A stretch of 14,388 nucleotides of DNA, taken from IMG/VR virus record IMGVR_UViG_2671180636_000001; one strand, given 5' to 3'. Origin of the DNA: a virus. Lineage: Duplodnaviria; Heunggongvirae; Uroviricota; Caudoviricetes. Every line of letters begins with the position of its first letter. Position 1 is the first letter of the stretch. The notes below the pieces were generated by a model. The model saw only the letters and a list, made by a program, of their open reading frames with translations, was not told where the DNA came from and made no database searches. Shown here one piece after another: positions 4,560 to 14,388 of this stretch. The translations under genes were made by a program, and so were the position numbers.

Positions 4560-5194
4560 CGCTTTATTACCATTCTCAGTTGATGCTGCAGCGCATAGCN
4601 NNNNNNNNNNNNNNNNNNNNNNNNNNNNNNTTCGGAAGACGTTCACGCCGTATCCGTTCAATATTCTGTTTAAACGCCGTGGTCAGCGGCACCGCCATCG
4701 GGATTTTCACCACATCAATGGGGTAACGGTTTTTCCCGGCCACACGCTGCATAACATGCCACCGGCCGTTTTTCAGTTGCTGAATNNNNNNNNNNNNNNN
4801 NNNNNNNNNNNNNNNNNNNNNNNNNNNNNNNNNNNNNNNNNNNNNNNNNNNNNNNNNNNNNNNNNNNNNNNNNNNNNNNNNNNNNNNNNNNNNNNNNNNN
4901 NNNNNNNNNNNNNNNNNNNNNNNNNNNNNNNNNNNNNNNNNNNNNNNNNNNNNNNNNNNNNNNNNNNNNNNNNNNNNNNNNNNNNNNNNNNNNNNNNNNN
5001 NNNNNNNNNNNNNNNNNNNNNNNNNNNNNNNNNNNNNNNNNNNNNNNNNNNNNNNNNNNNNNNNNNNNNNNNNNNNNNNNNNNNNNNNNNNNNNNNNNNN
5101 NNNNNNNNNNNNNNNNNNNNNNNNNNNNNNNNNNNNNNNNNNNNNNNNNNNNNNNNNNGTTTTCAACGGCCTGCTCAAGACCTTTTATGGCCAT
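4556..5194 (-). CDS. Z: Tail completion protein (lambda gpZ-like); interrupted by masked N runs at 4600-4630 and 4786-5158
   Basis: N-terminus MAIKGLEQAVEN (start 5192-5194) and unmasked internal/C-terminal segments (IQQLKNGRWHVMQRVAGKNRYPIDVVKIPMAVPLTTAFKQNIERIRRERLP ... stop overlapping the U start) match lambda gpZ; true length uncertain because the N runs do not conserve length or frame. Confidence 0.8.
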
Positions 5195-5205
5195 ACATCC
5201 CCCTT

Positions 5206-5580
5206 TCAGCGGCGACGGTTAACGGCAGGNNNNNNNNNNNNNNNNNNNNNNNNNNNNNNNNNNNNAAGCCAGAGATGACAACTTCCGCCATCATCCGGCG
5301 AAACCCGATCTACCCAGAAATTTTCCTCACCGATGGTCAGCGTGTCTCCACGCCGCAGCTGCCGCACCTCATCAGTCCGGACAAACAGGGACGGGCTGGA
5401 GCCTTCAACGCGCACGCCCTGTCCGGCATAGCTGATATTTTCAGGGTCATCAAAAACACCACGTATCACCGCACCTGACTGCTCACCGGATGTCATGGTG
5501 GCTGACGTTCCCATGTACCCGCGTATCGTTTCATCGGCGCGGGCAATGGCAGCATCGAACAGGTTATCGAAATCAGCCAC
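5206..5580 (-). CDS. FII: Head-tail joining protein (lambda gpFII-like); contains masked run 5230-5265
   Basis: Translation MADFDNLFDAAIARADETIRGYMGTSAT...CHLWL[masked]PAVNRRR recognised as lambda gpFII; 11-nt spacer to the Z start as in lambda. Confidence 0.85.
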   Translation of the reverse strand: MADFDNLFDAAIARADETIRGYMGTSATMTSGEQSGAVIRGVFDDPENISYAGQGVRVEGSSPSLFVRTDEVRQLRRGDTLTIGEENFWVDRVSPDDGGSCHLWLXXXXXXXXXXXXPAVNRRR

Positions 5581-8060: not shown

Positions 8061-8768
8061 CCGGGACTGCAATGTTTCCCGGACATCATCCGGTAGATGG
8101 CTGTAGGGGTTGCCATCCACCTTATGGCTGCCGCTGTAAATCAGCGTGATTTCNNNNNNNNNNNNNNNNNNNNNNNNNNNNNNNNNNNNNNNNNNNNNNN
8201 NNNNNNNNNNNNNNNNNNNNNNNNNNNNNNNNNNNNNNNNNNNNNNNNNNNNNNNNNNNNNNNNNNNNNNNNNNNNNNNNNNNNNNNNNNNNNNNNNNNN
8301 NNNNNNNNNNNNNNNNNNNNNNNNNNNNNNNNNNNNNNNNNNNNNNNNNNNNNNNNNNNNNNNNNNNNNNNNNNNNGCCACCATTCCGCCCGGTGTGTCN
8401 NNNNNNNNNNNNNNNNNNNNNNNNNNNNNNNNNNNNNNNNNNNNNNNNNNNNNNNNNNNNNNNNNNNNNNNNNNNNNNNNNNNNNNNNNNNNNNNNNNNN
8501 NNNNNNNNNNNNNNNNNNNNNNNNNNNNNNNNNNNNNNNNNNNNNNNNNNNNNNNNNNNNNNNNNNNNNNNNNNNNNNNNNNNNNNNNNNNNNNNNNNNN
8601 NNNNNNNNNNNNNNNNNNNNNNNNNNNNNNNNNNNNNNNNNNNNNNNNNNNNNNNNNNNNNNNNNNNNNNNNNNNNNNNNNNNNNNNNNNNNNNNNNNNN
8701 NNNNNNNNNNNNNNNNNNNNNNNNNNNNNNNNNNNNNNNNNNNNNNNNNNNNNNNNNNNNNNNNNNNN

Positions 8769-8774
<6 letters not shown>
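7455..8774 (-). CDS. C: Head maturation protease / minor capsid protein (lambda gpC-like); 5' part lies in masked runs (8154-8376, 8400-8839), start coordinate approximate
   Basis: Unmasked C-terminal 230 aa (EITLIYSGSHKVDGNPYSHLPDDVRETLQSRMDATRRMF...NDLLNTPV) and the 8377-8399 island (DTPGGMV) lie in one frame ending at 7455; start inferred from lambda gene length and overlap with B, cannot be read directly. Confidence 0.7.
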
Positions 8775-12535
<3,761 letters not shown>

Positions 12536-12561
<26 letters not shown>

Positions 12562-13081
12562 TCAGCAACCCCGGTATCAGTTCATCCAGCGCGGCTGCTT
12601 TGTTCATGGCTTTGATGATATCCCGTTTCAGGAAATCAACATGTCGGTTTTCCAGTTCCGGAAAACGCCGCTGCACCGACAGGGGGATCCCGTCGAGAAT
12701 ACTGGCAATTTCACCTGCGATCCGCGACAGCACGAAAGTACAGAATGCGGTTTCCACCACTTCAGCGGAGTCTCTGGCATTTTTCAGCTCCTGTGCGTCG
12801 GCCTGCGCACGCGTAAGTCGATGGCGTTCGTACTCAATAGTCCCTGGCTGGAGATCTGTCTCGCTGGCCTGCCGCAGTTCTTCAACTTCCCGGCGCAGCT
12901 TTTCGTTCTCAATTTCAGCATCCCTTTCGGCATACCATCTTATAACGGCGGCAGAGTCATAAAGCACCTCATTACCCTTGCCACCGCCTCGCAGAACGGG
13001 CATTCCCTGTTCCTGCCAGTTCTGAATGGTACGGATACTCGCACCGAAAATGTCAGCCAGCTGCTTTTTGTTGACTTCCAT
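12536..13081 (-). CDS. Nu1: Terminase small subunit (lambda Nu1-like), 181 aa
   Basis: 181-aa ORF (MEVNKKQLADIFGASIRTIQNWQEQGMPVLRGGGKGNEVLYDS...) recognised as lambda Nu1 with N-terminal winged-HTH; overlaps the start of A by 26 nt; lies immediately next to the cosB R sites. Confidence 0.93.
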
Positions 13082-13105
13082 TGTTCATTCCACGGACAAA
13101 AACAG

Positions 13106-13218
13106 AGAAAGGAAACGACAGAGGCCAAAAAGCCCGTTTTCAGCACCTGTCGTTTCCTTTCTTTTCAGGGGGTGTTTTAAATAAAAACATTAGGTTACGG
13201 CGAAGAAGAACGGAAACG
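13106..13218 (-). promoter_or_regulatory. cosB terminase-binding region with three R-site 12-mers (R3 13106-13117, R2 13151-13162 inverted, R1 13207-13218)
   Basis: Three copies of CGTTTCC(T/G)TTCT read directly: minus-strand copies at 13106-13117 and 13207-13218, plus-strand copy at 13151-13162; this matches the known orientation pattern of lambda R3, R2 and R1 between Nu1 and cosN. Confidence 0.85.
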
Positions 13219-13258
13219 CCTTAAACCGGAAAATTGTCATAAATAGCGAAAACCCGCG

Positions 13259-13270
13259 CGCCTTCCGCCC
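13259..13270. other. cosN (cohesive-end / terminase nicking site), 12-nt core; 5'-GGGCGGAAGGCG-3' read on the minus strand
   Basis: Flanks (..AAAACCCGCG | 12-mer | CGTAACCTGT..) match the lambda cos junction context from memory; the 12-mer itself matches lambda (GGGCGGCGACCT) only in its first six bases. Confidence 0.7.
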
Positions 13271-13305
13271 CGTAACCTGTCGGATCGCCGGAAAGGACCC
13301 GCAAA

Positions 13306-13322
13306 ATGATAATAATTATCAT
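13306..13322. promoter_or_regulatory. 17-bp perfect palindrome ATGATAAT-A-ATTATCAT between cosN and the right-end cassette; candidate protein-binding site
   Basis: Perfect 8-bp inverted repeat around a central base, read directly; function unassigned (cosQ-adjacent element or operator). Confidence 0.4.
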
Positions 13323-13469
13323 CTACATGTCACAACGTGCATCTACGCCATCAAACCACGTCAAATAATCAATTATGACGCAGGTATCGTATTAATTGAT
13401 CTGCATCAACTTAACGTAAAAACAACTTCAGACAATACAAATCAGCGACACTGAATACAGGGCAACCTC

Positions 13470-13703
13470 ATGTCAACGAAGAACAGAACCCGCAGAACAA
13501 CAACCCGCAACATCCGCTTTCCTAACCAAATGATTGAACAAATTAACATCGCTCTTGTTCAAAAAGGGTCCGGGAATTTCTCAGCCTGGGTCATTGAAGC
13601 CTGCCGCCGGAGACTGTGCTCAGAAAAAAGAGTTTCGCCTGAAGCAAACAAAGAAAAGAGTGACATTACTGAATTGCTCAGAAAACAGGTTAGACCAGAT
13701 TGA
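13470..13703 (+). CDS. Small basic ribbon-helix-helix-like DNA-binding protein, 77 aa (possibly DUF3950/YlcI-like; family assignment from memory, unverified)
   Basis: ORF with Arg/Thr-rich basic N-terminus, then a strand-helix-GxS/N loop-helix pattern typical of RHH (Arc/MetJ/CopG) folds (NIRFP / NQMIEQINIALVQ / KGSGN / FSAWVIEACRRRL); transcribed opposite to the structural operon; weak Shine-Dalgarno. Confidence 0.6.
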   Translation: MSTKNRTRRTTTRNIRFPNQMIEQINIALVQKGSGNFSAWVIEACRRRLCSEKRVSPEANKEKSDITELLRKQVRPD

Positions 13704-13760
13704 AGCAATTTAGATAATCGTGCAGACTACGCCCCCTCATATCACATGGAAGGTACTACA

Positions 13761-14171
13761 ATGGCTCAGGTTGCCATTTTTAAACAAATATTCGATAAAG
13801 TGCGAAATAATTTAAACTATCACTGGTTTTATTCTGAACTAAAACGTCACAATGTCTCACATTACATTTACTATTTAGCCACAGAGAATATTCATCTTGT
13901 TCTTGAAAACGATAATACGGTTTTAATAAAAGGACAGGGTAAGGTTGTAAATGTAAGATTTTCAAAAAATAAATGCCTTATAGAAGCCACCTTAAAAGGA
14001 TTCAAATCAGGAGAGTTATCATTTTACGAATACAGGAAAAATCTTGCTACAGCAGGGGTTTTCAGATGGATTACAAATATCCACGAAAACAAAAGGTATT
14101 ACTATACCTTTGATAATTCATTACTCTTTACTGAGAACATACAGAACACTACACAAATATTTCCGCACTAA
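13761..14171 (+). CDS. Hypothetical protein, 136 aa from the SD-supported ATG (141 aa from the upstream ATG at 13746); AT-rich, Tyr/Asn/Lys-rich; possibly DUF1398/YbcV-like (tentative)
   Basis: Clean ORF to a stop at 14169-14171; GGAAGG Shine-Dalgarno 7 nt upstream of ATG 13761; composition visibly AT-rich against the GC-rich structural genes; no motif recognised. Confidence 0.6.
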
Positions 14172-14179
14172 ATCATAAC

Positions 14180-14207
14180 GTCCGGTTTCTTCCGTGCCAG
14201 AACCGGA
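14180..14207 (+). terminator. Possible stem-loop downstream of the 136-aa ORF (8-bp stem GTCCGGTT/AACCGGAC, 12-nt loop); weak terminator candidate
   Basis: Inverted repeat read directly, 9 nt after the stop codon; no U-tract follows, so intrinsic-terminator function is uncertain. Confidence 0.3.
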
Positions 14208-14388
14208 CTCGCTGGCATGATGAAATATGTGTACCCGGNNNNNNNNNNNNNNNNNNNNNNNNNNNTGTACCCGGTAACCCCGGTGTGCATCGTTTTTGAT
14301 TATTCCCGCACACTCGCGCAGAAGGAGTTCCCCGTCGGGCTACGGTCTCTGTTAATACGGGAATACGGCGACGATTGGATTTGCCCCT

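Follow-up and report, generated by a model that had tools for sequence, protein, structure and literature searches.

The cos region of the window

The window, i.e., the whole stretch of 14,388 nucleotides that we analyzed (IMG/VR record IMGVR_UViG_2671180636_000001), is a lambda-like late region on the minus strand, with nu1, A, W, and B followed by further genes onward to H. Next to nu1 lies a cos site, the parts of which are listed in Table 1. Its 12-bp cohesive-end core reads GGGCGGAAGGCG and occurs only once in the window (0.01 chance matches expected). Compared with the lambda core, GGGCGGCGACCT, it is mismatched at bp 7, 8, 9, 10, and 12, while C11 is kept. In lambda orientation, the junction reads ...GGGTCCTTTCCGGCGATCCGACAGGTTACG/GGGCGGAAGGCG/CGCGGGTTTTCGCTATTTATGA... 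or, in a second rendering, ...GGGTCCTTTCCGGCGATCCGACAGGTTACG/GGGCGGAAGGCG/CGCGGGTTTTCGCTATTTATGACAATTTTCCGGTTTAAGGCGTTTCCGTTCTTCTTCG... (slashes delimit the 12-mer). A first-pass annotation had placed cos here with its R sites intact and had described five of the last six bases of the 12-mer as changed. Our alignment agrees with it on both counts, R3, R2, and R1 being identical to lambda and their spacings unchanged.

Table 1. Features of the cos region, the adjacent terminase genes, and two small ORFs
Feature	Coordinates	Strand	Remarks
12 bp between the cosN nick sites	13259..13270	-	bp 1 = 13270, bp 12 = 13259; from alignment to the lambda and DE3 cos sites and the lambda left end
cosN right half, bp 7-12, AAGGCG (lambda CGACCT)	13259..13264	-	5/6 bases changed; half nearest cosB
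cosN left half, bp 1-6, GGGCGG	13265..13270	-	identical to lambda
CG flanking the top-strand nick (lambda 48501-48502)	13271..13272	-	conserved in alignment
CG flanking the bottom-strand nick (lambda bp 13-14)	13257..13258	-	conserved in alignment
cosQ heptamer, GGGTCCT	13294..13300	-	distance to cosN as in lambda (alignment)
cosB R3, AGGCGTTTCCGTTCTT	13206..13221	-	identical to lambda bp 50-65; no indel between R3 and cosN
cosB R2, inverted relative to R3 and R1; plus strand reads CTGTCGTTTCCTTTCT	13147..13162	+	identical to lambda bp 109-124
cosB R1, CTGTCGTTTCCTTTCT	13106..13121	-	identical to lambda bp 151-166
nu1, terminase small subunit, 181 aa	12536..13081	-	98.3% identity to lambda Nu1; Pfam Phage_Nu1 E = 2e-101
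A, terminase large subunit	10620..12561	-	gpA 99.4% identical to lambda; 9-N scaffold gap at 11357-11365
Small ORF, 77-aa DUF3950 protein	13470..13703	+	position of the YlcI/YnfO-family gene of E. coli prophages
Small ORF, 141-aa DUF1398 protein	13746..14171	+	

The cosQ heptamer corresponds to what we take to be positions 48473 to 48479 of lambda, its sequence and spacing being seen directly in the alignment. From cosQ through R2, the alignment contains no indel relative to lambda. The I1/I2 spacers carry several single-base differences, and one nucleotide is deleted at lambda bp 137. The extent of R3 (bp 50 to 65) follows PMC9026076.

The window shows the hallmarks of a lambda-type cos: cosQ within about 24 to 30 bp upstream of the top-strand nick, adjacent terminase genes of the lambda family, and the outer CG pairs with the left half (first 4 to 6 bp, GGGC/GGGCGG) in the arrangement ACG/GGGCGG....../CGCGGG. 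The latter features were taken from PMC4669245 and from Vahanian et al. 2017 as cited in PMC9303873. Its cosB appears to be of the complex type, with R3, a predicted IHF site, an inverted R2, and R1. Only the canonical right half CGACCT is missing, and bp 7 to 12 vary naturally and are not treated as a defining feature of cos (PMC4669245). The site is not of the N15 type either, which combines GGGCGGCGTCCG with a single-R cosB and the N15 TerS, whereas the window has lambda Nu1 and a three-R cosB.

Both overhangs contain 10 G+C of 12, with nearest-neighbor free energies of -17.8 (variant) and -18.2 (lambda) kcal/mol, and they match each other at 7 of 12 positions. The twofold symmetry of the 16-bp cosN decreases from 10 bp (five pairs) in lambda to 8 bp (four pairs) in the variant: the CG/CG pairs and pair 2-11 are retained, pair 4-9 is gained, and pairs 3-10 and 6-7 are lost. 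None of the deposited phage records starts at GGGCGGAAGGCG.

Terminase genes and quality of the assembly

Nu1 of the window differs from lambda Nu1 only by K48R, A75T, and L132I, leaving residues 1 to 47, with the DNA-binding helix and wing, unchanged. The differences in gpA are T151S, D185E, L404R, and T466I. Both proteins are thus nearly identical to those of lambda, as the first-pass annotation had noted. Measured on the intact gpA homologue of locus L183, the Pfam domains GpA_ATPase and GpA_nuclease (endonuclease) span residues 47 to 285 and 322 to 600, respectively. Codon 404 (at about 11350, minus strand) lies in the stretch AGIDSQ(L/R)DRYE at the start of the endonuclease domain and adjoins a contig join, and L404R could possibly be a read-end error common to related assemblies.

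The A gene appears as two ORFs, and a genuine frameshift would favor impaired packaging. We rejected this candidate because the interruption is a 9-N gap with duplicated CCGCCGG on its edges, and taking out the N run regains a frame of 641 codons. The B gene has the same type of gap (9844 to 9859). In total, the window contains nine N runs (4600-4630, 4786-5158, 5230-5265, 8154-8376, 8400-8839, 8926-9173, 9844-9859, 11357-11365, and 14239-14265), several of which are edged by duplicated short k-mers (CCGCCGG...N9...CCGCCGG and TGTACCCGG...N27...TGTACCCGG), a feature typical of scaffolded short-read contigs. Because of these scaffold joins, A and B seem frameshifted, and C/Nu3, B, Z/U, and FII are partly masked.

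With nine such runs and duplicated junction k-mers, the variant 12-mer might itself be a sequencing or assembly artifact of a draft contig. However, the cos region lies within an unbroken stretch (11366 to 14238), and its exact sequence is found in 155 complete genomes, 23 plasmids, and 50 viral contigs. A local error is ruled out by the recurrence in complete genomes, and we give an artifact practically no chance.

Distribution of the variant allele

The first-pass annotation had proposed to look for the 12-mer in other prophages, and the search found it to be recurrent in E. coli genomes, plasmids, and viral contigs. Complete E. coli genomes, PLSDB, and GenBank phages were queried with a 38-mer consisting of the variant 12-mer, 4 nt to its left, and 22 nt to its right. 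Of the 5,426 complete E. coli genomes, 155 carried the exact variant, at a total of 166 sites, 150 of them chromosomal and 16 on plasmid records. The canonical 52-mer gave 8,414 sites in 4,488 complete E. coli genomes, the variant making up about 2% of the lambda-type cos sites in this collection. Plasmid records accounted for 16/166 variant sites vs 20/8,414 canonical sites, and the variant is strongly over-represented on N15-like phage-plasmid replicons. PLSDB contained 23 non-mobilizable plasmids of 34 to 92 kb with the variant, from E. coli, Shigella sonnei, E. albertii, and E. fergusonii, and a flank-pattern search of IMG/VR gave 50 viral contigs. The IMG/VR contig of locus L008 is essentially the window itself. 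Among GenBank phages, the variant was found in YDC107_1, which is filed under Ravinvirus, and in PhiR46_1. An exact 31-mer had no match among the GTDB species representatives, where E. coli is a single genome, and literature searches with the 12-mer and its reverse complement retrieved no phage paper.

A sample drawn by flanks only, and hence unbiased for the 12-mer, comprised 119 new loci among the matches listed: 116 were canonical, and three were singletons (GGGCGGCGACCG, GGGCGACGACCT, and GGGCGTCAGGCG). The left half varied at bp 6 only, in 2 of these 119 listed cos sites. At sites with a base other than T at bp 12, the right half was AAGGCG in the overwhelming majority, with CAGGCG, CAGACG, and CTGACG as rare relatives.

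The first-pass annotation had also named a finding that would overturn its reading, namely, that the 12-mer is the common end of a known lambdoid group with a terminase differing from that of lambda. Its first half held, since the 12-mer is a common end of a recognizable set of elements, but their terminase does not differ from that of lambda.

Flanking sequences and cassette-like behavior

In the comparison with lambda, 20 mismatches are concentrated in a divergent patch of about 180 bp that extends across cos (lambda 48427 to about 102), outside of which the flanks of the window are at least 98% identical to lambda. Most of the flank differences are ordinary polymorphisms common to canonical-cos relatives, e.g., 2H10 and Perceval. 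The right-end intergenic sequence had initially been suspected to form a mosaic junction. Divergence near cos is indeed present, but the patch lies on both sides of cos, and the true breakpoint is about 360 bp to the right, at window position ~13632 (13632 to 14376), where the lambda-like sequence (97%) stops at lambda 48141. Beyond this point, about 600 bp of lambda (47528 to 48140, including lambdap79) are missing, and the next stretch is 78% identical to the lambdap78 region. Just to the right of cos lie the two small ORFs of Table 1, which run in the opposite direction to the late genes.

Locus L069 was the closest relative with a canonical cos that we found, and it differs from the window at 5 positions of the 6-bp right half vs 3 of 260 flanking positions (Fisher p = 3e-8). 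The flanks contain no mismatch in ~130 to 134 nt on the left and three in 130 nt on the right (lambda bp 35, 78, and 80). Loci L010 and L039 differ by a single mismatch in 260 flanking bases, and some loci with identical flanks (30 nt on the left and 60 nt on the right) carry either allele. The variant 12-mer had 16 haplotypes on its left flank and 7 on its right. It was maintained on at least 26 different flank haplotypes and was paired with lambda-type R3, with a phage 21-like cosB (L010), and with a satellite-type cosB next to a Nu1-family gene. Because the mismatches are packed in the core, the same flanks carry either allele, and the flank and cosB pairings are many, the allele appears, from these sequence comparisons, to move as a very short cassette and not by gradual point mutation.

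Two routes could lead to such a cassette. Homologous exchange might take place within the highly conserved stretches that border cosN on both sides. Alternatively, a hybrid concatemer might be packaged into a chromosome with mismatched ends, and the resulting heteroduplex would segregate both alleles after replication. Such segregation has been shown for the 2-bp mismatch between lambda and N15, at a fourfold cost (Feiss et al. 2015, PMC4669245). Either route would fit the pattern described here.

Terminases of the variant carriers

We extracted Nu1 and gpA by tblastn, locus by locus, from every fetched locus with cos and at least 2.7 kb of downstream sequence. For gpA, the comparison comprised 27 variant-cos and 38 canonical-cos loci with a full-length lambda-type protein of at least 95% identity. 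The gpA proteins of the variant-cos loci were 98.9 to 99.7% identical to lambda gpA, and no substitution was common to all 27 of them. In locus L151, which carries the variant cos, I459V is the sole gpA difference from lambda, and it is also present in 21/38 canonical-cos loci.

The first-pass annotation had considered that the altered half-site could be compensated for in the endonuclease domain of A, and specificity changes in gpA or Nu1 would indeed allow efficient cutting of the variant. Two gpA substitutions point in this direction. T466I, which lies in the Pfam endonuclease domain, was found in 15/27 variant vs 8/38 canonical loci (Fisher p = 0.008, the loci being non-independent), and L404R was seen in 3/27 variant loci (the window, L008, and L016) and 0/38 canonical ones. 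L404R is, however, private to the lineage of the window, and T466I is neither necessary (12/27 variant loci do without it) nor sufficient (8 canonical loci have it) as a compensating change. Linkage is the simplest reading of the T466I enrichment, although mild tuning could also be conceived. Among the carriers, Nu1 falls into two haplotypes, with identities to lambda of about 98% and about 93%. The latter haplotype has its differences within residues 71 to 148, outside the DNA-binding domain with its helix (17 to 24) and wing (31 to 39), and most canonical loci have L132I as well. In addition, lambda TerL is non-specific for the right half of cosN (PMC4669245). Since no gpA substitution is common to all variant carriers, and the gpA of L151 differs from lambda by I459V alone, compensation is not supported, and we regard it as highly unlikely.

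Natural cosN variants in other phages and satellites

Apart from bp 7, 8, 9, 10, and 12 and the symmetry of cosN, the window matches lambda in cosQ and its spacing, the CG pairs, bp 1 to 6, C11, the distance between cosN and R3, and the three R sites. Other natural right-half variants are known. The cosN of N15 and phiD326, which we read directly from the N15 left end as GGGCGGCGTCCG, shares G at bp 12 with the window allele, and, in experiments, it is cut by lambda TerL no less well than the lambda site (PMC4669245). It differs from lambda at two positions (bp 9 and 12) and from the window allele at four (bp 7 to 10). Moreover, the variant carriers have lambda-type Nu1 and a three-R cosB, while in N15 the cosB is simple, with a single R, and the TerS is a distinct one. 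Gifsy-1 is changed at bp 8, 9, and 11 (PMC4669245), and mEp213/LLS has the cohesive end GGGCGGCGCGCT, a right-half variant of a 12-nt 5' overhang. Unlike the window allele, these have 2 to 3 positions changed, to other sequences, and their terminases and head genes are far from those of lambda. The allele of the window is a further member of this class of natural cosN variants, and the most extensive among those compared.

Two phage-plasmids among the carriers, PhiR46_1 (L137/L184, PV340565) and YDC107_1 (L138, CP025712), are N15-like linear replicons, each with telL/telR, ParAB, and a primase, but have lambda-type Nu1 and gpA and a three-R cosB instead of the N15 terminase and simple cosB. 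In locus L010 (IMGVR_UViG_3300039332_000035, 1561 to 2400), the variant 12-mer is joined to a phage 21-like cosB and a 21-like nu1 start. Only about 35 codons of this nu1 remain before a fusion to gpA at residue 56, and L010 is presumably a defective deletion derivative.

The 12-mer is also shared, together with cosQ, by the satellite-type loci L142, L146, and L169, putative lambda-dependent satellites (PICIs/helper-embedded elements), where it is followed by an unrelated cosB and a Nu1-family (Rpp-like) gene without gpA. That the variant family is specific to satellites was rejected, as related satellite-like cosB sequences also occur with the canonical 12-mer and most variant sites have a lambda-type R3. 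In L142 (2060 to 7204; also in L146, L169, L148, L171, and L115), a satellite-like element lies within a lambda-type major capsid gene. It consists of a capsid-E-like ORF, a D-like ORF, AlpA, cos with the variant or a related 12-mer, and a 180-aa Nu1-family gene, again without gpA, and downstream of it lie a truncated E, FI, Z, U, and V. Others have described comparable elements, namely, the helper-embedded satellites and PICI Rpp systems. In the L142 group, the right halves are AAGGCG, CAGACG, CTGACG, and CAGGCG, the last being that of L115, whose full 12-mer, GGGCGTCAGGCG, has a T at bp 6 as well.

Use of the variant site

PhiR46_1 combines the features of an N15-like linear phage-plasmid (telL/telR, ParAB, and a primase) with a complete lambda-type morphogenesis module and the variant cos. 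Only N9D, S21A, and T466I separate its gpA from that of lambda. It belongs to a panel of lambda-related temperate phages that others have plaque assayed, and a later strain table and the GenBank host field give it as an isolated phage. A chromosomal prophage of APEC E14033 with the variant has annotated nu1, A, W, B, and C that are intact. With the allele present in PhiR46_1 and in this intact prophage, the variant site is used by propagating phages, and we infer the nick positions from the sequence.

These carriers bear on the proposal, made in the first-pass annotation, that the prophage is packaging-impaired. If the allele caused a partial or complete packaging defect, its carriers would be decaying prophages or poor packagers. 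The low frequency of about 2% would fit this, as would the lowered twofold symmetry of cosN. Some carriers are clearly defective, such as L010 with its truncated nu1 fused to A. Furthermore, none of the lambda mutants tested has five right-half changes, and the assembly of the window is too fragmentary to reveal an intact prophage. On the other hand, an identical 12-mer on at least 26 flank haplotypes and three cosB types is unlike a decaying site, full-length A is intact in 27 carriers, and the 16 sites on phage-plasmid-sized replicons and 23 on PLSDB plasmids from four species indicate horizontal spread. PhiR46_1 was, according to the sources cited above, isolated as a phage. Impaired packaging is thus unlikely as a property of the allele, although the copy in the window, a fragmentary draft, might still be impaired. 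Replacing five of six bases may nevertheless carry a quantitative packaging cost, since the published tolerance covers single and double changes and natural variants of 2 to 3 bp.

This tolerance is well documented in lambda. Mutations in bp 7 to 12 of cosN have a minimal phenotype, whereas the symmetric changes in the left half are severe (Xu & Feiss 1991, summarized in PMC4669245), and the asymmetry of the half-sites depends on the neighboring cosB (Hang et al. 2001, summarized in PMC4669245). Natural variation is found mostly in bp 7 to 12, while the CG pairs flanking the nicks and cosQ are conserved, and lambda with the N15 form of cosN gives a wild-type phage yield using lambda TerL (PMC4669245). 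According to Vahanian et al. 2017, as cited in PMC9303873, the conserved positions are the first 4 bp plus two flanking bp per side, and the window variant retains every one of them. That the terminase tolerates this half-site, one of the options raised in the first-pass annotation, is supported by our data and is what both lambda studies predict.

We thus favor, at roughly 80% probability, that the variant is a functional and naturally circulating cosN allele that is cut by essentially unmodified lambda terminase. All known determinants of cutting are intact: the CG pairs, bp 1 to 6, cosQ, the spacing between cosN and R3, the R3, R2, and R1 sites, the Nu1 helix and wing, and gpA. The replacement is confined to the permissive right half, and the mechanism, which we infer from lambda biochemistry, would be as follows. 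Nu1 bound at R3 would anchor one gpA protomer for the bottom-strand nick between bp 12 and 13, in keeping with the finding that TerS at R3 positions TerL for this nick (PMC4669245). The position of the nick would be measured from R3 and be largely independent of bp 7 to 12. The second gpA protomer would read the conserved left half (CG/GGGCGG) and make the top-strand nick, and termination would be handled by cosQ, which is conserved in the window. Both chromosome ends would derive from copies of one cos, and their overhangs would be mutually complementary.

Alternatively, the terminase might nick the variant at shifted positions, and the true overhang would then be other than the 12-mer. TerL is reported to be inaccurate when improperly anchored, and the variant termini given here are predicted ones. 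However, the anchoring elements, the distance between cosN and R3, and both CG pairs are unchanged, and the cut point is measured from R3: according to the title of Higgins & Becker 1994 (reference list of PMC4669245), terminase measures its cut 47 +/- 2 bp from an R site. We consider shifted nicks very unlikely.

As only the change-tolerant half of the cutting site differs, the site is an ordinary natural variant and poses no packaging puzzle. What first looked like one is largely resolved by the known tolerance of the half-site proximal to cosB. What may be new is a change of five of the six bases, together with the fact that the allele acts like a small cassette that can be swapped while the flanks stay the same.

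Possible cohesive-end types in lambdoid phages

In the 119 flank-sampled sites among the matches listed, which comprise several cosB specificities and are conditioned on exact flanks, bp 7 to 12 are nearly as invariant as bp 1 to 6 and cosQ. In these listed sites (L018 to L136), the core from cosQ to about bp 34, including CTATTTATGA, is almost invariant despite very different R3 regions, and this conservation reaches well past the positions genetically known to matter. The alternative state is one discrete allele at about 2%, present in prophages, phage-plasmids, and satellites, and intermediates are very rare. This discreteness sits uneasily with bp 7 to 12 being free of selection and hints at population-level selection for compatible ends. 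However, the sample is tied to exact flanks, and conservation covers the entire -30 to +34 core.

One tentative and rather doubtful explanation is that the cohesive ends of E. coli lambdoids form discrete compatibility types, selected for end matching among co-resident, recombining lambdoids. A concatemer of two types would give chromosomes with ends matching at 7 of 12 bp, and two overhang mismatches already lead to a fourfold lower yield (PMC4669245). If the idea were correct, the variant would be a partial barrier to genetic exchange or co-packaging and would spread as a 12-bp cassette via mismatched-end heteroduplexes.

In practical terms, cos and terminus finders that match GGGCGGCGACCT miss about 2% of the lambda-type cos sites of E. 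coli and a large share of the cos sites on N15-like phage-plasmids. Likewise, lambda-end oligonucleotides and cos-based ligation tricks would not anneal to variant genomes.

Overall, the divergent 12-mer signals neither a new terminase specificity nor a dead prophage. The allele would represent a natural confirmation that lambda terminase places the bottom-strand nick by measuring from cosB and not by reading bp 7 to 12. Its cassette-like distribution hints that exchange between lambdoid phages, and with their satellites, may be influenced by the compatibility of cohesive ends.
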